A stretch of DNA of 42,792 bases from positions 1-42,792 of the IMG/VR virus record IMGVR_UViG_3300047335_000010. One strand, 5' to 3'. The stretch's first letter is position 1, and each line of letters opens with the position of its first letter. The stretch is from a virus. Under the pieces are notes generated by a model. The model saw only the letters and a list, made by a program, of their open reading frames with translations, had not been told where the DNA came from and searched no databases. Below, one piece after another: positions 3,229 to 42,792 of the stretch. Position numbers and translations under genes: made by a program.

Positions 3229-4836
3229 TTGCCAGTTCCATTCGATTTTGATTTCAAGAATCCCGATTATATAGCCGCCTATCGATGGCGGCTAAGTCGG
3301 CTCGAATCGCTTCGTAAGAACCCCAAACAATTCGCAGCATTACGTGTTTATTATCGTGATAACCCAATACAATTTATTAACGATTGGGGCATGACGTACG
3401 ACCCGCGCAATGTCGACCGTCGACTGCCTGCCGCGATCCCGTTTCTTTTATTCCCGAAACAAGAAGAATTCCTTCAATGGCTAATCGATCGATGGAAAGG
3501 ACGCGAACCGGGACTCGCCGATAAATCGCGCGATATGGGTATGTCGTGGTTGACGGTCGCGCTCGCCTGTACGCTTTGCTTATTTCACGATGGAATGTCG
3601 GTCGGTTTCGGCTCGCGCAAGCAGGACTATGTCGATAAGCTCGGCGACCCGAAATCATTACTTTACAAAGCCCGCAAATTTACCGAAGCGCTTCCGCGGG
3701 AATTTAAGGGCTCATGGGACGTGAAAAAACACGCGCCCCACATGCGGATAATGTTTCCAGACACAGGCGCGATCATATCGGGCGAGGCAGGCGATGGGAT
3801 CGGGCGAGGCGACCGTACTAGTATTTACGTTGTGGACGAGGCGGCCTATCTCGAACGACCGGAGTTAATAGATGCGTCCCTTTCTGATACGACCAATTGT
3901 CGAATCGATATCTCGACCCCGAACGGCACCAATAACCCGTTCGCCCACAAACGATTTAGCGGAAAAATATCGACGTTTAGCCTTCACTGGCGAGACGATC
4001 CGCGCAAGGATGACGAATGGTATCAAAAGAAATGCGACTATCTCGACGATCCGGTAATCATCGCGCAGGAACTCGACCTTAATTACTCGGCGTCAGTCGA
4101 AGGCGTATTGATCCCGGCCGAATGGGTCAATGCGGCCATTGACGCGCATACCAAGCTAGGAATTAAGCCCACAGGCGCGCGACGCCTCGGCCTTGACATT
4201 GCGGACGAGGGACGGGATAAAAATGCGGCATGTGGAAGCTACGGCATTTTAATTGAATATCTCGAAGCGTGGTCAGGAAAGGGCGGCGATATTTACGGAA
4301 CGGTCGAAAAGACTTTTACGCTTTGCGATCTTTTTGAATATCCCGAAGCGTACTATGATGCAGACGGGTTAGGCGCGGGCGTCCGGGGCGATGCACGTAT
4401 CATTAATGAGAAACGAATTCATAAAATCCCGTTCCATCCGTTCCACGGGTCAGGGGCGGTCGTTGATCCCGAAGGCGATCCGTTTTTGCGTTCGAAAGAA
4501 CATAAGGACTATAAAAAAGGGCGAACGAACGAGGATTTTTTCGTTAACTTTAACGCTCAGGCGTGGTGGTCGTTGCGTCGTCGTTTCCAGCATACTTATA
4601 AAGCCGTGGTGCAAAAACTGGAATATACCCCGGAAGACATTATCTCGATATCGAGCGCCCTCCCCCAAAGTCGCCAACTTATTATTGAGCTCTCGCAACC
4701 GACGTTTTCGCAAAACAATGTGGGCAAGATTGTCGTCGATAAAACGCCAGACGGCGCTCGGTCGCCTAATTTTGCTGACGCTGTTAAGATAGCCTATGCG
4801 CCTTACAAAAAATCAAGGAGTTTCTGGGATGTTTAG
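3229..4836 (+). CDS. terL: Terminase large subunit (Terminase_6-like)
   Basis: N-terminal [13 protein letters not shown] motif, Walker-A-like KSRDMGMSW, Walker [10 protein letters not shown] and a C-terminal nuclease-like region ([17 protein letters not shown]). TTG start at 3229. The first in-frame ATG lies about 54 codons in, so the exact start is uncertain. Confidence 0.85.
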
Positions 4837-6346
4837 GAGAATATTGGATCGATTTAAGAAGCCGGTTGTCGTGCCCGTCACGATCAAGCCAGAAAAGCCC
4901 CGGCAAGTATTCAGCACGACCGAGTTCGGCGAGACTGAAATCGCCATGCGCCTTGAAGCCATGCAGGCGCACGTATTTAAGGGCGCGATCCATCCCGAGC
5001 TACAGATCACGCTCGATAAGGCGGCTACGGCACCGAAAGCATCGTTTGCAATGGACGCCAATTTTTCATTGAAAGGGTCATTTTTCGGTAACGATATCGT
5101 CCCAAACGGCCAGTTATTATGGTATGCGAACCAAACATTCATCGGATACCAGTTATGCGCGATGATGGCGCAAAATTGGTTAATCGGTAAATGTTGTTTA
5201 ATGCCCGCCGAAGATGCGACCCGAAAAGGATTCGAAATAACAGTGAACGACGGAACGGAAGTCGACCCGGAAATTTTAGACAACATGCGAAAGCTCGACG
5301 TTAGATATAACCTGACGCACGCAATGATACAGTTCGTACAGTTCGGCCGCGTATTCGGTATTCGTGTCGCTATGTTTAAAGTAGAGAGTGAAGACCCCGA
5401 ATATTATTATAAACCGTTCAACCCTGACGGCGTGACGCCCGGGAGTTACCGCGGTATTTCCCAGATTGATCCTTACTGGGTAACGCCGCAACTCGACCCG
5501 CAAGCCGCGGGCGATCCATCGTCTATCCATTTCTATGAGCCGACGTGGTGGAACATTGCGGGCAAACTCGTACACCGGACGCATTTAATCATATACCGGA
5601 TGGAAGAGCTCGCCGATATCTTGAAACCAACTTATATTTACGGCGGTATTCCTATACCGCAAAAGATTTACGAACGTGTGTATGCTGCGGAGCGTACTGC
5701 AAATGAAGCGCCGATGCTAGCGCTTACGAAACGTTGCGATACGATTTATCTCGATTTATCGCAGGCTGCCGCTAACCCAACGGGATTTGCAAAACGTATG
5801 GAAGAGTTTGCATTCATGCGCGATAACTTCGGCGTGAAAACGCTTAATATCGAAGATAAGATGGAGCGTTTCGATACGTCCCTCGCCGATCTCGATGCGG
5901 TCATTATGACGCAATACCAGCTTGTAGCGGCCGCCTCAAACGTACCCGCTACAAAGCTACTCGGCACGCAGCCGAAGGGCTTTAACGCAACGGGCGAGCA
6001 CGAAGAGGCGAGCTATCACGAGATGTTAGAAAGCATTCAGCGTCACGCCCTAACGCCGCTTATCGAACGTCATCATATGTTGATGATACGATCCGAAATT
6101 TGCCCGCAATATAAAATAAAACCCTTCGATACGACCGTCACATGGGAACCGCTCGATGCGATGACCGCGAAAGAGAAAGCCGAAGTTAATCGCATGAGCG
6201 CCGAAACCGGATCGCTATTGATTAACGCGGGCGCAATCGATGGTAACGACGAACGCGAACGAATTATAAACGATCCTGATTCCGGTTACTCGGGTATGGG
6301 GATCGAGGAACTATTGATTGATCCCGAAGAAAACGGCGAATTATGA
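4829..6346 (+). CDS. Portal protein (DUF1073-like)
   Basis: About 505 aa immediately after terL, with the characteristic HRTHLI...[25 protein letters not shown] region. I prefer the ATG at 4829 (AAGGAG 8 nt upstream) over the ORF-track start at 4796. Confidence 0.8.
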
Positions 6347-25858: not shown

Positions 25859-26146
25859 ATGAACCTATCTGATCACGTGTGCTCTCTCGAACTAGCGACA
25901 CGATTAAAAGAGCTCGGCGTCAAACAGGAAAGCATGTTTTCATGGTTTCATTGTTCCGACGGTTCGTATGAGCTTGACTACGGTTTAGACGGGATTCCGC
26001 CACTACCGGATGAATATATCTCGGCGTTCACCGTTTCGGAGCTTGATCTATTAATACCTACGATACTCCGTCGATCCGAAACGGAAGCGGACATAAGAGC
26101 GAAAAAGTTAATTAACGTATTGGAGCTTAAAAATGGTCTCAGGTGA
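25859..26146 (+). CDS. Hypothetical protein
   Basis: 95-aa ORF with N-terminal SLELATRLKELGVKQES, preceded by GGGG. Confidence 0.5.
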   Translation: MNLSDHVCSLELATRLKELGVKQESMFSWFHCSDGSYELDYGLDGIPPLPDEYISAFTVSELDLLIPTILRRSETEADIRAKKLINVLELKNGLR

Positions 26147-26438: not shown

Positions 26439-26524
26439 CCAACTGGCCGCAAGCGTTCGTCGGTATGGGTGTCGCATTCGCCGCGGCGGCCGTTTTAATC
26501 GTTTTAATTATATGGCAGTCGTAA
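26426..26524 (+). CDS. Possible 32-aa single-pass membrane peptide
   Basis: MEVITNWPQAFVGMGVAFAAAAVLIVLIIWQS. It is below the ORF-track size cutoff, fills the gap to parA and overlaps the DUF3310 gene end. Confidence 0.3.
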   Translation: MEVITNWPQAFVGMGVAFAAAAVLIVLIIWQS

Positions 26525-26525
26525 C

Positions 26526-27158
26526 GTGATTATATCCCTACTTCAAGAAAAGGGCGGTAGCGGCAAGACGACGATCTCGATTAATCTCGCGAAAGCGTTT
26601 CAATCACTCGGCTATACGGTATTACTCGTCGATTCCGATCCGCAGGGCTCAACGCGCGATTGGCATACGAATAATAATGGCAATACCCTCGATGTGATTG
26701 GCCTTGACCGACCAACGATCGATAAAGATATAAAACGGTTTACCCGCCAGTATGATTATATTTTTATTGATGGCGCGCCGCATTTATCCGTCATGGTCAC
26801 GAAGACTATTATTATATCTGACGTCGTGCTCGTCCCGGTTCAGCCGTCGCCGTACGATGTGTGGGCGAGCGCCTCGCTCGTCTCGCTCATTAAGCAGCGC
26901 CAAGAGATAACGGATGGCAAGCCCAAAGCCGCGTTCGTTATTAGCCGCAAGATCGTCGGGACGAATATCGGGCGAGAAGTTAATACCGCCTTGATTGAGT
27001 ACGGCTTGCCGATCGTCTCGGGCGGTACGTGCCAACGCGTGAGTTATGCGGAGACGGCCGCAAAGGGCTTGACCGTTTTATCGAGTGACGATAATTCGGC
27101 CAAGAGCGAAATGAGCATACTAGCCGCGAATGTATTGGAGTTTTCTAAAAATGATTAA
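26526..27158 (+). CDS. parA: ParA/Soj-family partition ATPase (small, type Ib-like)
   Basis: Deviant Walker A in MIISLLQEKGGSGKTTISINLA, then LLVDSDPQGS and IFIDGAP. 210 aa with no N-terminal HTH. GTG start. Confidence 0.85.
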   Translation: MIISLLQEKGGSGKTTISINLAKAFQSLGYTVLLVDSDPQGSTRDWHTNNNGNTLDVIGLDRPTIDKDIKRFTRQYDYIFIDGAPHLSVMVTKTIIISDVVLVPVQPSPYDVWASASLVSLIKQRQEITDGKPKAAFVISRKIVGTNIGREVNTALIEYGLPIVSGGTCQRVSYAETAAKGLTVLSSDDNSAKSEMSILAANVLEFSKND

Positions 27159-27336
27159 AGCTAAAAAAGATACGTCACGGGTCGCAAAGCTTCAAAAGCA
27201 AATGTTATCGCCCAAGAAAAATTTAAACGTCGAGATCGACGCGGCGCTATTCAAACGATTTAAAGCGAAGGTCGCCGCGAACGGTGAGACCATGACGGAA
27301 ATTCTCACCGGGGCGATACTGGACTATTTAGCGTGA
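27151..27336 (+). CDS. Ribbon-helix-helix partner protein (ParG/CopG-like centromere-binding candidate)
   Basis: 61 aa with a basic N-terminal tail, then NLNVEIDAALFKRFKAKVAANGETMTEILTGAILDYL (beta strand, helix, helix pattern). ATG at 27151 overlaps the parA stop. Confidence 0.55.
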   Translation: MIKAKKDTSRVAKLQKQMLSPKKNLNVEIDAALFKRFKAKVAANGETMTEILTGAILDYLA

Positions 27337-27683
27337 GCGTTTAATAGTTCGGCTTGTAGATTTCCGTCTTTACGATATACCTGACAAGAGATACGGAATT
27401 TTTCCGTTTCTTTCGTCAAATTATCTTGTCCAGATGCGATCAAATGAACGAGCCAGATATCGGGATTACTCGTATCAAGCGCATACGATTTATTTAAATC
27501 GAATTTAATTGCGTCAGTTTTATCAATCTTTTTCGCTTCAAATACACAGGTGTCGACGATCTTATCGTAAATTTTATTAGGTAATAGTGCGTAACCTATC
27601 CCGATAATAATTAAGAATGTGATAATAGCGACGACTAAGGGTACTAGTATAGAATTAAGGATATCTTTAAATATTGGTTTCAT
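27324..27683 (-). CDS. Membrane-anchored hypothetical protein (last gene of leftward operon)
   Basis: 119 aa with N-terminal TM helix ILVPLVVAIITFLIIIGIGYALL. AT-rich, and its 3' end overlaps the convergent RHH gene by 13 nt. Confidence 0.55.
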   Translation of the reverse strand: MKPIFKDILNSILVPLVVAIITFLIIIGIGYALLPNKIYDKIVDTCVFEAKKIDKTDAIKFDLNKSYALDTSNPDIWLVHLIASGQDNLTKETEKFRISCQVYRKDGNLQAELLNAHAK

Positions 27684-27698
27684 GGTTTCTTGCTTTCC

Positions 27699-33532: not shown

Positions 33533-34419
33533 ACGCTCGTCCCCGCCATATACGTATCGATAAATTCCGAGACGCCCGCGAACAGATCGGGACGGCAGGG
33601 CAGTACTGCAAGGGACGGCATCCCGACGGATTCGACCGCCCGAACGACCGTTTCTTGCGTGATTTTCCCTTGCTGGACGAGCCCGGTTATTTTTTTCATA
33701 AGGGACGGCCAGTCGAGCTCAGGCGCATCGGATTTAAACCCCGCGAATTCGCCACCTTTAACTGGCGCACTTGGCGCACTTGGCGCACTTGGCGCACTTG
33801 GCGCACTTGGCGCACTTGGCGCACTTGGCGCACTTGGCGCACTTGGCGCACTTGGCGCATCGGTCGAGGCGCGTAATTGCTGCGAGATTTCGTCGACTTT
33901 TCGCAAGTCTATCCCGCGCTGGACTTTCCACGTCCCGTCCGCATTCTTACTCTTGGTGCGCGTGTGTATACGGGCGTCCCACGGTAGCCCTGCCGTATCG
34001 AGGTCAACGCCGGTTTTAATCGGACGCGGAACAAGGTCGGGATCAACTGTGAACGGATTGAACGCAGCGTCCGGTAGCCCGGGCGCAGGCGGGGGCGTCA
34101 GGTCGCGGAGCGGTTCGACCGGGGCGGGCATTTTATACGAGGGGACAGGTTTATCGCCTTCGGGTATTAACTCGTTACAACCGTCCGTACTGACGGGTTT
34201 CTCGGAATTAGCTGGGCTAGTTCCGACCGGGGCGGCCATTAACTCGTTGCGCGGAACGATCCCGAGTAGGTAATCGTCGGTATTATCTTTTTTAGCAGCC
34301 GTGAGCGGAACGGGGGCGGGACGTACTTCAGCGCCCGCAATTTTCATCAATAGCGTTGCGACATCGATCAATAGTTGCCTTGGCGCAAGGTGCGGGTCGG
34401 TGATTTCAATTTTAATCAT
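33529..34419 (-). CDS. Pro-rich hypothetical protein with (APS)10 linker; first gene of leftward operon
   Basis: SD GGAGA upstream of the ATG at 34419, and ATGA coupling to the next gene. Contains a GLPWDARIH motif and a perfect APS repeat. Confidence 0.6.
   Translation of the reverse strand: MIKIEITDPHLAPRQLLIDVATLLMKIAGAEVRPAPVPLTAAKKDNTDDYLLGIVPRNELMAAPVGTSPANSEKPVSTDGCNELIPEGDKPVPSYKMPAPVEPLRDLTPPPAPGLPDAAFNPFTVDPDLVPRPIKTGVDLDTAGLPWDARIHTRTKSKNADGTWKVQRGIDLRKVDEISQQLRASTDAPSAPSAPSAPSAPSAPSAPSAPSAPSAPSAPVKGGEFAGFKSDAPELDWPSLMKKITGLVQQGKITQETVVRAVESVGMPSLAVLPCRPDLFAGVSEFIDTYMAGTSV
33764..33860. repeat. Perfect 9-bp tandem repeat GGCGCACTT x10 plus a partial unit, in frame within a CDS
   Basis: Read directly: ten identical units at 33764-33853, then GGCGCAT. 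Confidence 0.95.
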
Positions 34420-36783: not shown

Positions 36784-37098
36784 ATGTCAAGAGCAAAACG
36801 AACGAGGCCTGCCGTCAGGCGCGAACAGCTAATCGACGCGGCTATAAAAATAAGTAAAGAAATAGGGTACAATAAGCTTACACGCGATAAAGTCATGAAA
36901 GAAGTCGGCATAACCGTCTCTCTTTTAAGCTATTATTTTCCTCGCATGTCAGACTTAAAAAACGCTGTTATGGATGCGGCGGTCGAACGTGGAATTGTCG
37001 AAGTTATTGCACAGGGAATCACTTTAAACGATCCGCGCGCACTCACGATCAATCCGCAAACCAAACTACAGGTAATCGCATTTATGATGCAAACTTGA
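36784..37098 (+). CDS. Short TetR-family-like HTH DNA-binding protein
   Basis: REQLIDAAIKISKEIGYNKLTRDKVMKEVGITVSLLSYYFPRMSDLKNAVM matches the TetR_N pattern. At 104 aa it lacks most of the usual ligand-binding domain. Confidence 0.6.
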   Translation: MSRAKRTRPAVRREQLIDAAIKISKEIGYNKLTRDKVMKEVGITVSLLSYYFPRMSDLKNAVMDAAVERGIVEVIAQGITLNDPRALTINPQTKLQVIAFMMQT

Positions 37099-37111
37099 AG
37101 GATTATTTACT

Positions 37112-39436
37112 ATGGAAGCTTTCACGAAATATAATCAATTTATCCTCTATATGATCGTACCGTCCCGCCGTTCAGGTAAAAACGATAAGATGCCAATTAA
37201 TTGGCGAACCGGGAAAGTCGCGAACGCACACGACCCGAAAATCTGGCTATCACGGGATCAAGCTAATATCAAAGCAAAGGAATTGAACGCGCGCGTCGGT
37301 TTCGTATTCACTAAGGACGACCCGTTTTTCTTCATCGATATTGACGATTGTTATGACCCTACGACTAACCAATGGTCAACTCTCGCGTTAAAAATGCTTG
37401 CCGCCTTTCAAGGCGCAGCGGTCGAAGTCTCAAGCGGTGGTCGCGGCCTTCACATATTCGGCACCGGTACCGTTCCGCCGCATACGTGCCGCAACGCCGA
37501 AAATAAACTCGAATTTTATACCGACGGACGTTTTGTCGCGCTTACCGGGTTCCATGCAACGGGTGATGCCGGTAAGGATTGTTCGGCCGTACTCCCGTGG
37601 CTAGTCGAGACGTACTTCAAGCCGGAACCGGATAGCGGTTCGTCATTGCAACCGTGGACGACCGAAGCCGTTAAAGGCTACCGTTGCGAATCGACGGACG
37701 ACGAATTAATCGAGCGGATGCTGCAATCAAAACCGGTGTCGGCCATATTCGGCGATGGCATTACGTTCCGCGATCTTTGGGAAGCGAACGAGCCGGTACT
37801 TGCGAAAGCGTATCCGCCGAACGAAACGGATAACTATAACCGGAGCTCCGCCGATGCGGCACTCGCGCAACGACTCGCTTTCTGGACGGGCAAGAATTGC
37901 GAACGGATCGAGACGTTAATGAAGAGGTCGGCCTTAGTCCGCGAGAAATGGGAACGTAACGACTATCTCCCGAACACCATTCGAGCGGTGTGCGGGAGAC
38001 AAATAGAAGTGCTTTACGATAAGCCCCCAGAATATACGACAGCACCCGATAAGATTCAAGCGGACGATGCGCCACGGCCTAAGCTCGTCACCGGCTCGAC
38101 GTTCCTCACAGTCGATCAACAGATCGATTATTTCGCCGGGTGCGTGTACGTGCTCGACGAACACAAGGTCATGATACCGGACGGCCAGCTACTCACCCCC
38201 GAACGGTTCAAGGCGTACTATGGCGGTAATATGATGCCGCTCGATGTCGCTAATACGAAGACGACCCGGAACGCTTTCGAGGCATTTACTGAATCGCAGG
38301 CATTCCGGGCACCGCGGGCGGATTCCTGTATTTTCCGTCCAGACTGTACCCCGGGAGGCATCGTATTGGATGACGGGCGACGGATGGCGAATATCTATCA
38401 CCCAGTACACACCTTGCGGATGTCCGGCGAGATCGCCCCGTTCGTGCGCCACATTGAAAAGTTATTCCCCGACCGGCGCGACCAAGACATTATCCTCGCT
38501 TATCTTGCGGCGATCATTCAATACAAGGGCGTTAAATTCCAATGGTGCCCGCTCATACAAGGCGTGGAGGGAAACGGAAAGACTTTCCTGACCTACGCCG
38601 TTGCGTTCGCGATCGGCCAACGATATAGCCATTTCCCGAAAGCGGCCGAGATCGCCTCGAAATTCAATGATTGGCTATACGCCCGTATTTTCGTCGGGGT
38701 CGAAGATATCTTTCTCGCCGATTCGAAATTCGAGGTAATCGAAGCATTAAAGCCGATGATTACCGGGCAATACCAAGAAATCGAGGCGAAGGGCGGGACG
38801 AAAATCACGCGGAGTATTTGCGCGAATTTCATCCTGAATACCAATCACAAGGACGGGCTCAGGAAGACCCGCAACGATCGCCGGTTCGCCCCGTTCTATA
38901 CCCCGCAGCAAAACGCGCAAGACTTGATACGGGACGAAATGGACGCACGCTATTTTTCCGAATTATATAAATGGGCGAGGAAGTGTAACGGGTACGCAAT
39001 CATTCATTGGTTTCTGGCAGGTTATGCGATCCCCGATGCGCTTAATCCCGCGCATGGCGAGAAAGCGCCACAGACAAGCTCAACCGAGGCCGCTATCGAG
39101 CAGGGCATGGGACGCATCGAGCAGGAAGTACTCGAAGCCGTAGCGGAAGGTTTATCGGGCTTCCGGGGCGGCTGGGTATCCTCGATCGCACTCGATAATT
39201 TACTCGTACGCGTGAAAGCGGATCGCGCCATGCCAAGGCGCAAACGCCGCGAGATGATGGAAAGTTTGGGTTATGGGTGGCATCCGGCATTAAAAGACGG
39301 CCGCATGACCCGGAACGTCCAGCCGGATGGTAGCAAGCCGACACTATACCTTCGTTTCGATCATGTAGCGCTTAAACTGCAAACGGTTGAAGACATTGCA
39401 AAAGCCTACACGGAAGCACAGACGAAAGTTGATTAA
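37112..39436 (+). CDS. Bifunctional primase-polymerase (AEP) + SF3 helicase (P4 alpha / D5-like)
   Basis: AEP motifs FFFIDIDDC and GGRGLHIFG. C-terminal Walker A QGVEGNGKTF and Walker B IFVGVEDI. 774 aa. Confidence 0.8.
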   Translation: MEAFTKYNQFILYMIVPSRRSGKNDKMPINWRTGKVANAHDPKIWLSRDQANIKAKELNARVGFVFTKDDPFFFIDIDDCYDPTTNQWSTLALKMLAAFQGAAVEVSSGGRGLHIFGTGTVPPHTCRNAENKLEFYTDGRFVALTGFHATGDAGKDCSAVLPWLVETYFKPEPDSGSSLQPWTTEAVKGYRCESTDDELIERMLQSKPVSAIFGDGITFRDLWEANEPVLAKAYPPNETDNYNRSSADAALAQRLAFWTGKNCERIETLMKRSALVREKWERNDYLPNTIRAVCGRQIEVLYDKPPEYTTAPDKIQADDAPRPKLVTGSTFLTVDQQIDYFAGCVYVLDEHKVMIPDGQLLTPERFKAYYGGNMMPLDVANTKTTRNAFEAFTESQAFRAPRADSCIFRPDCTPGGIVLDDGRRMANIYHPVHTLRMSGEIAPFVRHIEKLFPDRRDQDIILAYLAAIIQYKGVKFQWCPLIQGVEGNGKTFLTYAVAFAIGQRYSHFPKAAEIASKFNDWLYARIFVGVEDIFLADSKFEVIEALKPMITGQYQEIEAKGGTKITRSICANFILNTNHKDGLRKTRNDRRFAPFYTPQQNAQDLIRDEMDARYFSELYKWARKCNGYAIIHWFLAGYAIPDALNPAHGEKAPQTSSTEAAIEQGMGRIEQEVLEAVAEGLSGFRGGWVSSIALDNLLVRVKADRAMPRRKRREMMESLGYGWHPALKDGRMTRNVQPDGSKPTLYLRFDHVALKLQTVEDIAKAYTEAQTKVD

Positions 39437-39709: not shown

Positions 39710-39913
39710 TCACTTAGGTTCAACGATTACCTTCTGCCTAGGCCGATACCTGCGGTCAAGCTCGATGTCGGCCGCAGGGATAAGGATAGAGCGCCCGCAG
39801 TCACAGCGCTTATGGTTAGGGAAATGGCCTTGCTTGAGTTTAGCGTCGATTCGTTGCTTACAGACGCCCAAAAGCTCGGCGGCCTCGGCGGTCGTTAGTT
39901 TCTTCTTTTTCAT
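39710..39913 (-). CDS. HTH DNA-binding protein (excisionase/AlpA/MerR-like fold)
   Basis: LTTAEAAELLGVCKQRIDAKLKQGHFP...ILIPAADIE, with SD GAGGGGAG. It is a lone minus-strand gene abutting the iteron field. Confidence 0.6.
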   Translation of the reverse strand: MKKKKLTTAEAAELLGVCKQRIDAKLKQGHFPNHKRCDCGRSILIPAADIELDRRYRPRQKVIVEPK

Positions 39914-40020: not shown

Positions 40021-40353
40021 GCCGGTATCGAAATATACCGGCCTCATACCGGCTCGCCTATACCGGCCTTAACTTAACTCATTGATTCTATTAAACTTTT
40101 TATTAACACGGCCGGTATGGCCGGTATAAAATGAAATCGCTCCAGCCGACTCCACCGGTACCCTCCGGCATACTGTAGGTCACGGCCTATACTTCCCGTT
40201 TACTCCCCATTCCACCGACTTCTATTTATACCGGCCATACCGGCCACACCCTTTATATTAATAATAAAATATTCTTATTAATTAATTATTTAATTAAATA
40301 AAAGGGGACGGCCGGTATAGCATGGCCGGTATACGGCCGGTACAGGCCGGTAT
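40021..40353. repeat. Iteron field: 12 copies of (GG)CCGGTA(T/C) in both orientations (putative replication origin)
   Basis: Plus orientation at 40022, 40112, 40121, 40312, 40326, 40337 and 40347. Minus orientation at 40035, 40046, 40060, 40228 and 40237. A 13th copy lies at 40582. There is an 18-bp perfect inverted repeat at 40110-27 / 40228-45 and a palindrome GCCGGTAT-N6-ATACCGGC at 40021-42. Confidence 0.75.
40252..40304. other. AT-only stretch (putative DNA unwinding element)
   Basis: About 53 bp containing a single C (40274), flanked on both sides by iteron clusters. Confidence 0.6.
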
Positions 40354-40460
40354 CCATGTGATTGTAAATAAAACGGGCAGATTACGAAAAATGATCCGGC
40401 TTTGTACGACGAACTAAGGGAATAGTTGGGGGATTGCGCTTCGTTTGCACAACGAAACGT

Positions 40461-40575
40461 CCGTTTTCGTCCGTTCGGCGACCGTTTTCGTCCGTTCGGC
40501 GACCGTTTTCGTCCGTTCGGCGACCGTTTTCGTCCGTTCGGCGACCGTTTTCGTCCGTTCGTCGGCCGTTCGGCG
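40461..40575. repeat. 21-bp tandem repeat CCGTTTTCGTCCGTTCGGCGA, 4 perfect + 1 degenerate units
   Basis: Units start at 40461, 40482, 40503, 40524 and 40545. CCGTT recurs every 10-11 bp. The overlapping ORFs encode only repeat peptides. Confidence 0.9.
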
Positions 40576-40648
40576 AGCCGGATACCGGCAACGTGACCGG
40601 AACGACGGAGTGTGATACCGTAATAATATTTAAGGAAGTAATACAAAC

Positions 40649-41074
40649 ATGGCAGAAAAGAAGAAAAAAAAGACAGTAAAGAAATATGTAAAAAAATACG
40701 TCACGTCTTATAAAATGATCGAAGAGTGCCGCGTTTTGGCTGGGCACGGATTGACGACGGATCAACTCGCCTATTATTTTAAGTTAAAACCGATCACGCT
40801 TCATAGAATGATCGCACGCGATCCGGTATTGAAGGAAGCGATCAAGAACGGCAAATCGGTCGTCATTGCAGAGATAGCCGGGCTACTTGTGCAAAAAGCA
40901 CGTGAAGGCAATGTATCGGCTATGGTATTTTATTTGAAGACTCAAGCACGTTGGAACGAGTTTAATAATTCAGATAATCCCCCTCCCGACAAGCCAAAAA
41001 TAAGTTATAGTATAACGACGACCGACCCGGTTGAGGCCGCGCGTATTTATCAGCAAATCATGACAGGGAGCTAG
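40649..41074 (+). CDS. terS: Terminase small subunit-like DNA-binding protein
   Basis: Lys-rich N-terminus, HTH-like LTTDQLAYYFKLKPITLHRMIARD and the motif REGNVSAMVFYLKTQARWNEF seen in small terminases. RBS AAGGAAG. Confidence 0.55.
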   Translation: MAEKKKKKTVKKYVKKYVTSYKMIEECRVLAGHGLTTDQLAYYFKLKPITLHRMIARDPVLKEAIKNGKSVVIAEIAGLLVQKAREGNVSAMVFYLKTQARWNEFNNSDNPPPDKPKISYSITTTDPVEAARIYQQIMTGS

Positions 41075-41077
41075 TGT

Positions 41078-41350
41078 ATGGGGTCAACCGTACAAGCAAG
41101 TGACGGCGCAATGCTACCGCTAGATAGTCTCGCGCAAGAATTTATTTTTAGCGGCAGTTTCATTTCAACGATTACCGTCCAATACGCTGGCCGCGCGTAC
41201 GTTCAAACCTTCGAAAATGACGGTACAAATATTATCTTTATTTCTAATTGGATTTATACGCCTATATTGCCCGGCGGCGAGATCATGACAGACGAAAGCG
41301 GCGACGTCATGACCGATGAAAGCGGCGACATTATGGTTACGGAGAGTTAA
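41078..41350 (+). CDS. Hypothetical protein with C-terminal MTDESGD(V/I) duplication
   Basis: 90-aa ORF between terS and the fibre gene. A 24-bp unit is duplicated at its 3' end. Confidence 0.45.
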   Translation: MGSTVQASDGAMLPLDSLAQEFIFSGSFISTITVQYAGRAYVQTFENDGTNIIFISNWIYTPILPGGEIMTDESGDVMTDESGDIMVTES

Positions 41351-42098: not shown

Positions 42099-42792
42099 AT
42101 GATTACCGCCGCAGAGTTTCTGACGTTATGTAGTGTATTTAATGTAAAAATTGGCGGCGGATCGATCTCGATTCCCGTCTCGATGGGGCAAGGCGGTACG
42201 GGCGCGGTATTAAGCCCGAGCGCAGGAAGCCTGCTTGTATCCGGGGCGAGTCATGCGTCATTACTTCCGACTAGCCCGTTCGGCTTGCTCGCAACAGATG
42301 GCAGCGGCAATCCTTCGATCACTAACTCGTTACCGTCCGGGTTATCAATTCCCGGCTATCTCGCCCTGAGCGGCGGGACGATGACCGGTAACCTTATTTT
42401 AAACGGCGATCCCACCAATCCGTTACAAGCGGCGACGATGCAATACGTTCAGAGTATTGGGACGGGCTTCACGCCGTTAGGTTCCGTCTATGCCGCGTCA
42501 ACCGCGAATCTTACCGGGTGGACATACACAAACGGGTCGAGTGGTGTGGGAGCGCAATTGACCGCGCCCGGCAATGGCGTTTATACAACTGACGGGACAA
42601 CACCCCCGCTAAATAGTTTTATTTTATATAAAGACGATACGACCTATTCGAGCGTGGCGAACGGTATTTATCAACTCACAACAAGTGACAGTGGCGACCG
42701 GGCGGTACTGACCCGTGCGACCTATTACGATACTCCCGCACAAATTAAACCCGGTACGCTCGTTAGTATCGAGAATGGAAACGTGAATGCCG
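42099..42792 (+). CDS. Tail fibre protein, 5' part (continues through the terminal repeat into 83..2838)
   Basis: ATG at 42099 after AAGGA. The frame stays open to the end of the window and is in phase with frame 1 at base 1. Contains the classic fibre motif LSGGTMTGNLILNGDPTNPLQAATMQYV. Confidence 0.8.
   Translation, partial: MITAAEFLTLCSVFNVKIGGGSISIPVSMGQGGTGAVLSPSAGSLLVSGASHASLLPTSPFGLLATDGSGNPSITNSLPSGLSIPGYLALSGGTMTGNLILNGDPTNPLQAATMQYVQSIGTGFTPLGSVYAASTANLTGWTYTNGSSGVGAQLTAPGNGVYTTDGTTPPLNSFILYKDDTTYSSVANGIYQLTTSDSGDRAVLTRATYYDTPAQIKPGTLVSIENGNVNA
42711..42792. repeat. Terminal direct repeat, copy 2 (identical to 1..82)
   Basis: Same 82-nt string as the start of the window. Confidence 0.95.

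Follow-up and report, generated by a model that had tools for sequence, protein, structure and literature searches.

The window, by which we mean the whole stretch of DNA that was analysed (42,792 nucleotides), begins and ends with the same 82 bases (1-82 and 42711-42792) and is thus a circular assembly of 42,710 bp. It carries the genome of a tailed phage with a headful-type TerL, which belongs to an uncultivated family of putative phage-plasmids. The genes and gene-associated features that matter here are the following.

3229-4836: TerL
4796-6346: portal
26491-26508: two copies of CGTTTTAAT, directly upstream of parA, inside a small hydrophobic ORF
26526-27336, plus strand: small ParA (210 aa) and an RHH, ParG-like protein (68 aa)
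27.7-33.1 kb, minus strand: PolA, a Gp2.5-like SSB and a PD-(D/E)XK exonuclease
37112-39436, plus strand: NrS-1-type primase-polymerase with SF3 helicase (774 aa), candidate origin-binding protein
39710-39913, minus strand: HTH_17 (MerR/excisionase-type) DNA-binding protein, divergent from the control region
40649-41074, plus strand: terS (141 aa), whose product has a basic tail at the N terminus, an HTH, long helices and, at the C terminus, a tail of TerL-binding type, DPVEAARIYQQIMTGS

The genome also encodes a DEAD-type helicase and, preceding the primase-helicase gene, a TetR-like protein (36784-37098). A model of the C-terminal 194 residues of the primase, in which a winged helix like that of P4 alpha was sought, had a pLDDT of 38 and was unusable. 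GC skew tracked the direction of transcription only and was uninformative for placing an origin. Homologues of ParA and PolA (55-80% identity) were found on very many metagenomic contigs of 39-47 kb, an indication of a large uncultured family of uniformly sized phages that carry a partition system. No primase homologue was detected among PLSDB plasmids at E <= 1e-20, and DNA and primase searches of phage and plasmid collections gave no informative match.

In an unusual arrangement, terS and terL are separated by four genes (40649-4836 through the junction), which encode a 90-aa protein, a 256-aa virion-protein-like protein, a 1149-aa fibre-like protein and a 116-aa coiled-coil protein. The three genes right after terS are the same in the relatives examined. 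The fibre-like gene (42099 through the junction to 2838) is cut by the ends of the window. Where the 90-aa and 256-aa genes overlap lies a 24-bp tandem repeat of 2.6 copies, GCGGCGACATCATGACAGACGAAA (41274-41335), which recurs with substitutions on two contigs encoding an identical TerS (L004 and L005; numbers beginning with L are our handles for related loci).

Between the HTH_17 gene and terS extends a non-coding control region of 735 bp. From the HTH_17 gene onward it is composed of an element of 9-mers around an AT core, a conserved spacer, a 21-bp tandem array and a promoter-like block, after which terS begins.

40021-40355, no strand assigned: origin-like element, about 13 copies of the 9-mer GGCCGGTAT in inverted sets about an AT core
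40375-40395, plus strand: conserved spacer GGGCAGATTACGAAAAATGAT, which separates the 9-mers from the array; TTGGCCATATTTCGTAA is common to L008 and L014 here
40384-40460, no strand assigned: left flank of the array, with isolated core copies in both orientations
40461-40575, no strand assigned: 21-bp tandem array, four perfect units, one unit with two mismatches and a half unit
40580-40589, minus strand: single 9-mer GGATACCGGC, after the array and before the promoter-like block, conserved in L022
40593-40621, plus strand: promoter-like block, GTGACC, a 17-bp spacer and TGaTACCGT (extended -10-like), read by eye from conservation

The AT core of the origin-like element spans 53 bp (40250-40302) and is 94% A+T, and the inner part of the element forms a large imperfect palindrome (40227-40333). 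In the left flank, ACGAA occurs at 40384, 40409 and 40452 and TTCGT at 40440. The block CTTCGTTTGCACAACGAAACG (40439-40459) within this flank is conserved in L008 and L014 and abuts the first array unit head-to-head. The promoter-like block is conserved in the window, L008 and L022; a scan for consensus promoters did not call it. It includes GTGA motifs of the type recognised by the NrS-1 primase. The recognition sequences of that enzyme are TTTGGTTA and GTG (PMC8718748), and neither is present in the array unit.

Exact copies of the array unit, CCGTTTTCGTCCGTTCGGCGA, begin at 40461, 40482, 40503 and 40524, and the mismatched unit begins at 40545. The initial annotation, made from the sequence of the window, had described four perfect 21-bp repeats and a degenerate fifth; our analysis confirmed these and added the half unit that runs to 40575. 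Tandem Repeats Finder reported the repeat at 40461-40570, with a period of 21, 5.2 copies, 97% matches and a score of 206. The pentamer CCGTT had been described as recurring every 10-11 bp in ten copies on one face of the helix. We counted 11 copies, from 40461 to 40566, in steps that alternate strictly between 10 and 11 bp, so that the 21-bp unit resolves into two sub-sites, CCGTTTTCGT and CCGTTCGGCGA, and their mean spacing of 10.5 bp does place them on one face of the helix. Each unit contains TTCGTC once, and a T4 tract recurs every 21 bp. When the whole window was searched for the unit with up to three mismatches, all five matches lay in the array, against 0.01 expected, and none of 100 shuffled sequences reached five. 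The array was also the sole helically coherent cluster of 5-mers in a scan of the whole window (11 sites, coherence 0.99). The array is genuine and far beyond chance. Judged from this layout, it is very likely a docking site for a cooperatively binding DNA-binding protein; the earlier proposal of an arrangement suited to an oligomeric protein is, as a generic reading, supported by the phased direct repeats.

Five mechanical ORFs span the array, none with a Pfam family, and the unit is translated as FSSVRRP on the plus strand and as NGRKRSP and RRTDENG on the minus strand. These ORFs were not conserved among the relatives examined, and a coding repeat was rejected on both grounds. The view that such ORFs are repeat artefacts is likewise reasonable, since the copy number or orientation of the array differs between relatives. 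A structured RNA or an array of terminators was rejected as well: although each unit scores as a weak terminator-like hairpin, folding was no better than that of shuffled sequences (z = +0.76 and +1.10 for the two strands). Rfam returned no family for the array and only spurious miRNA-type matches on the AT-rich palindrome.

No exact match to the 21-mer unit was found in a scan of IMG/VR, and a scan with a 15-mer gave single matches only, at about the number that we estimate to be expected by chance. An identical TerS is encoded on four other contigs (L004-L007). L004 begins within the array, and the other three, two of which are k=141 assemblies, begin precisely at its 3' edge, so the array exists in other samples too. 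In L005 the last unit has a 12-bp variant form. The repeat itself explains why contigs break at this point, and the copy number in the assembly of the window may be collapsed or polymorphic.

To place the array in an evolutionary setting, we compared six related genomes reached via homologues of TerS, ParA and PolA; when TerS and ParA loci in IMG/VR were cross-matched, a single contig was shared. The architecture of 9-mers was seen downstream of the primase gene in all six genomes, whereas the 9-mer sequence drifts, to GCCCGTAT in L014, CCGGTAT/CCGTAT in L010 and GCCCGAA in L194. Since origins that work with SF3-helicase initiators offer an analogy, we take this element of 9-mers and AT-rich DNA to be the probable origin of replication. 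The array had a narrower distribution. L008 (TerS 75% identical) contains two inverted 21-bp units, the reverse complement of which matches the unit of the window at 16-17 of 21 positions by our count. The L014 clade (TerS 53%) carries a period-21 array of 3.2 copies built on TTCGTC cores, and also has within its origin-like element an exact 15-mer, CCGTTTTCGTCCGTT, in common with the window, for which we estimate a chance of about 1e-3 between two regions of 0.7-0.8 kb. L022 (TerS 53%) has five GACGAA in 60 bp at irregular, unphased spacing. No TTCGTC was found in the corresponding slot of L010 (TerS 65%), which has GGGACTAYC repeats there instead, or of L194 (TerS 39%). The intergenic counts of TTCGTC/GACGAA are thus 7 in the window, 5 in L008, 4 in L014, 5 in L022 and 0 in both L010 and L194, with about 0.3 estimated by chance. 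The comparison of copy number proposed earlier therefore has a divided outcome, with homologous arrays in L008, the L014 clade and L022 and none in L010 or L194; copy number, orientation and even presence differ. Retention of the TTCGTC arrangement with 10.5- or 21-bp periodicity in several lineages argues for a function.

In 2.6 Mb of fetched loci, this slot was the sole site of TTCGTC-type clusters, apart from a single one within a primase gene. In L190 (primase 53% identical to that of the window), four TTCGTC/GACGAA lie in a stretch of 160 bp (1258-1417) inside the primase gene itself. This cluster recalls N15 repA, an example of an origin inside the initiator gene.

Presence of the motif followed relatedness in the primase and early module, not in TerS. 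The primases of the motif-positive L014 and L022 are 72% and 65% identical to that of the window, and those of the motif-negative L010 and L194 are 61% and 60%; over the last 120 residues the values are 73 and 73 against 61 and 60. For TerS the corresponding identities are 53 and 53 for the motif-positive pair and 65 and 39 for the motif-negative pair. The L014 ParA is 80% identical to that of the window. Position gave a similar picture: the last right-arm 9-mer and the array are separated by 108 bp in the window, 111 in L008, 87 in L014 and 38 in L022, whereas the array and terS are separated by 74 bp in the window, about 88 in L008, 206 in L014 and 1303 in L022. The AT core of the window lies 159 bp from the array, with four 9-mers intervening, and the distance to the origin-like element is roughly conserved in the relatives. 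Several relatives have a gene for a ParB_N and N6/N4 DNA-methylase protein (411 aa) between the control region and terS, overlapping the start of terS (L022 1782-3017, 1.2 kb; L023; L194 from about 9870 onward; L213); the window lacks this gene. Taken together, the comparisons of motif, position and the wider TerS family assign the array to the origin-like element and early module and not to terS, in a small sample of five relatives in which this association is confounded with overall relatedness.

Based on this, our preferred reading, which we hold tentatively, makes the array an auxiliary set of iteron-like sites beside the putative origin, serving replication or maintenance control and read by a protein of the early module. 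Iterons, as in P1, F, R6K, RK2 and the lambda origin, are direct repeats of 17-22 bp, spaced at 21-22 bp in sets of four to seven near an AT-rich segment and the replication genes; their copy number varies and extra iteron sets serve copy control. With a period of 21, 5.5 units and 97% matches, the array has the form of such a set. The proposed binder would occupy the 11 sub-sites cooperatively and head-to-tail, along the one face of the helix to which a mean of 10.5 bp (10 + 11 = 21 bp, two helical turns) would assign them, and would bend or wrap about 115 bp of DNA. The primase-helicase would be the leading candidate. Lying about 100 bp to the right of the origin-like element and directly upstream of the promoter-like block of the late operon, the array would most likely titrate or handcuff the initiator and in this way adjust copy number or the firing of the origin, and the adjacent late promoter might be occluded or stimulated as a side effect. 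What the sequences show is the array with its phasing, homologous arrays in relatives and a tie to the early module and the origin-like element, whereas the role of that element as an origin, the identity of the binder and the effect of binding are what we infer.

Several observations limit this reading. The AT core is flanked by 9-mers and not by the array, so the 9-mers are the better candidates for primary initiator sites and the array would be at most auxiliary. L010 and L194 have the origin-like architecture without an array, which makes the array dispensable. The irregular cluster of L022 also counts against an iteron-like element. Among the proteins scanned there was no initiator family of the winged-helix RepA/Rep_3 type, the replication protein here being the NrS-1-type primase-helicase.

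The initial annotation had proposed recognition by TerS, that is, a pac site, and had placed the array about 75 bp before a terS-like gene; we measured 73 bp to the terS ATG (40649). The gene does encode a genuine small terminase. It matches a TerS profile (phrog_309, 1.6e-13), its C-terminal tail, invariant in the family as DPVEAARIYQQIM, matches the tail of the Magia TerS (this Burkholderia phage has a TerL with 62% identity to that of the window), and the best, though weak, fold matches of its model (pLDDT 77) were Sf6 gp1 and the 2ao9 nonamer. Under this alternative, a TerS ring whose HTH domains lie about one helical turn apart would dock on the 11 phased sub-sites, wrap about 115 bp and bring TerL into position to make its first headful cut close to where the late operon begins. 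Proximity to terS speaks for it, as does the TerL, which falls in a clade that takes in 9NA-like phages; PMC8954984, citing Zeng 2019, describes those phages as packaging by a pac-directed headful mechanism. In SPP1, direct repeats of pac span the terS promoters, and TerS rings carry HTH motifs about one turn of DNA apart with a proposed wrap of about 100 bp (PMC4737164). From a ring of Cn symmetry one expects direct repeats spaced by about 10.5 bp, as observed, and the circular assembly breaks at an arbitrary point, as permuted DNA would give.

However, motif and TerS do not go together: L022 retains the motif with a TerS recognition-helix region of only 14% identity, and L010 lacks it despite a TerS of 65% identity. 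The distance from array to terS varies from 74 to 1303 bp, with the ParB-methylase gene intervening in L022, and the array of L008 is inverted relative to terS. About 160 further members of the TerS family had no tandem or phased arrays before terS; scans of these loci for tandem repeats and phasing found nothing comparable, and we rejected the array as a general feature of the family. The HTH of SF6/SPP1 TerS can bind DNA with little sequence specificity (PMC4737164), so the missing covariation weakens TerS as the binder rather than removing it. Overall, the pac proposal stands as far as the neighbouring gene is concerned and is weakened by the relatives, and we regard both the docking of a TerS ring and a first cut at this position as unlikely.

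A broader version would have the array act as a near-ideal wrapping track for a ring-shaped DNA-binding protein, either TerS alone or TerS together with the replication initiator. Eleven sub-sites in the same orientation at a mean of 10.5 bp are about what one turn around a TerS ring of 9 to 11 subunits needs, and the array stands where the origin-like element, the late promoter-like block and terS meet. We consider this a long shot. Were TerS, or TerS with the initiator, to bind here, the array would be the first pac site to have the wrap-around model written into its sequence, and it would physically couple origin activity to the initiation of packaging. With TerS as the binder it would also be a useful substrate for structural work on DNA recognition by small terminases.

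The position of the array would also suit regulation of the late operon, in which an early-encoded regulator bound to sites from about -53 to -167 of the promoter-like block would activate late transcription or silence it in a carrier state. The array ends 17 bp upstream of the conserved, -35-like GTGACC hexamer, and the HTH_17 gene diverges from the same region. If the regulator is encoded early, the link between motif and early module would be accounted for, and OmpR/PhoB-type activators, which use phased arrays of direct repeats just upstream of -35, offer a precedent. Against this, the promoter itself was inferred, the consensus scan having made no call, and its spacing to the array varies, from 17 bp in the window through about 30 bp in L008 to more than 150 bp in L014. 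The array of L008 is inverted, and 11 sites are far more than activators normally use. HTH_17 as the binder was judged unlikely because its recognition helix does not differ between motif-positive and motif-negative genomes and its gene is missing from the L014 locus, which also tells against late regulation as a whole. We therefore rate this explanation as rather improbable.

A partition centromere had been suggested as well, the genome encoding a ParA that matches AAA_31 (3.8e-25) and CbiA and a 68-aa protein with weak matches, under the Pfam cut-offs, to RHH_10 and ParG. Here, RHH dimers would coat the phased repeats in the manner of a type Ib system and ParA would segregate the plasmid prophage. 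RHH centromere-binding proteins do use arrays of short direct repeats; ParR of pSK41 binds four 20-bp repeats, and R1 parC has ten 11-bp repeats. In pCXC100, an RHH protein binds nine 9-bp direct repeats (PMC3074162). No convincing repeat array lies beside parA and the RHH gene of the window, and the 100 bp upstream of parA echo the array with CGTTCGTCGG, an exact 10-mer of the array end, and CGGCGgCCGTTTT, a 12/13 match to the unit. Only 0.86% of the 100-bp windows of the genome echo the array as well (empirical p about 0.009), whereas 12-mers matching the parA-upstream region with one mismatch are common noise across the genome. The RHH beta-strand NLNV and the TTCGTC arrays are both common to the window and L014.

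The array nevertheless lies 13.3 kb from the par operon, whereas a centromere of type Ib is found upstream of its operon, for which it also acts as operator (PMC3074162). The par genes and the array motif occur together in L014 and L022, but the genome of L194 has ParA (72% identical) and the RHH protein without an array. In L208, three copies of ATCTTTAAAT and one inverted copy, unrelated to TTCGTC, lie upstream of parA; in the genome of L194, parA is preceded by unrelated ATCTTTAAAT repeats. Nothing array-like was found upstream of parA in the L014 clade. The centromere proposal thus retains the ParA/RHH pair and the weak echo, is weakened by distance and by L194, and in our view is a doubtful account of the array.

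Other repeats lie nearer to the par genes. Two triplets of an 8-bp repeat (consensus ATGGTTTC, with the 12-mer TTTCATGGTTTC in common) occur at 25935-25957, about 590 bp upstream of parA, and at 27675-27697, about 340 bp downstream of the RHH gene; these triplets and the two copies of CGTTTTAAT are possible pieces of a par operator or centromere. A perfect 9-bp tandem repeat of 10.8 copies, TGGCGCACT (33763-33859), encodes (SAP)x11 in a conserved 296-aa early protein to which no function was assigned, and at this position the homologues of L194 and L369 show a gap or a P/A/S-rich linker that is not repetitive. We rejected it as an alternative centromere because it codes for a linker in a conserved protein.

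Finally, a neutral minisatellite, arisen by recent slippage expansion or assembly collapse of a short motif in a non-coding spacer, is very unlikely: its four identical units do indicate recent amplification, relatives differ in copy number and orientation with two lacking the array, and other assemblies of the same phage break there, yet the same core recurs with 21/10.5-bp periods in lineages whose flanks can hardly be aligned, a unit that measures exactly two helical turns and divides into 10 + 11 is unlike a product of slippage, and the exact 15-mer is common to the window and L014.

The phage family concerned is abundant, with hundreds of soil and peat contigs of 40-46 kb carrying close homologues of PolA and ParA, and has neither a cultured member nor a mapped cis-acting site. 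The 735-bp control region, with its two distinct repeat families, offers concrete targets for locating the origin, copy control and the start of packaging, and the array is short, perfectly regular and easily synthesised. If the binder is not TerS, the array would be one more iteron-like array; the best-supported view is accordingly of a known sort of element that is new in an uncultured phage family.

Comparison with known systems sets these readings in context. Known pac and cos sites consist of two or three dispersed boxes. Like the array, pacL of SPP1/SF6 and cosB of lambda place repeated sites at or upstream of the terS promoter, and the TerS of SPP1/SF6 is a ring of HTH motifs about one helical turn apart with a proposed wrap of about 100 bp (PMC4737164). 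Unlike these sites, the array has 11 contiguous phased sub-sites, and its motif goes with the early module and is not kept beside terS in relatives. The RHH-bound centromeres (pSK41 and R1 parC, TP228 parH, pCXC100 parS) are likewise contiguous short direct repeats, on which RHH dimers bind cooperatively; they lie just upstream of the par operon, unlike the array, which is 13.3 kb away and missing in one par-positive relative. Phage P4 resembles the window in combining a primase/SF3-helicase initiator with clusters of short repeats in two separate cis elements, ori and crr. Its alpha primase-helicase binds one type of octamer in both elements, unlike the two unrelated motif families of the window. 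A further comparison is with the iterons of P1 oriR/incA, F ori2, R6K gamma, RK2 oriV and lambda ori. Unlike in those replicons, there is no Rep_3/RepA gene, the AT core is flanked by another repeat (the 9-mers), and each array unit, known here at the level of the sequence, is visibly composed of two sub-sites of 10/11 bp; in repeat length, spacing and helix face, the array and the iterons are the same.
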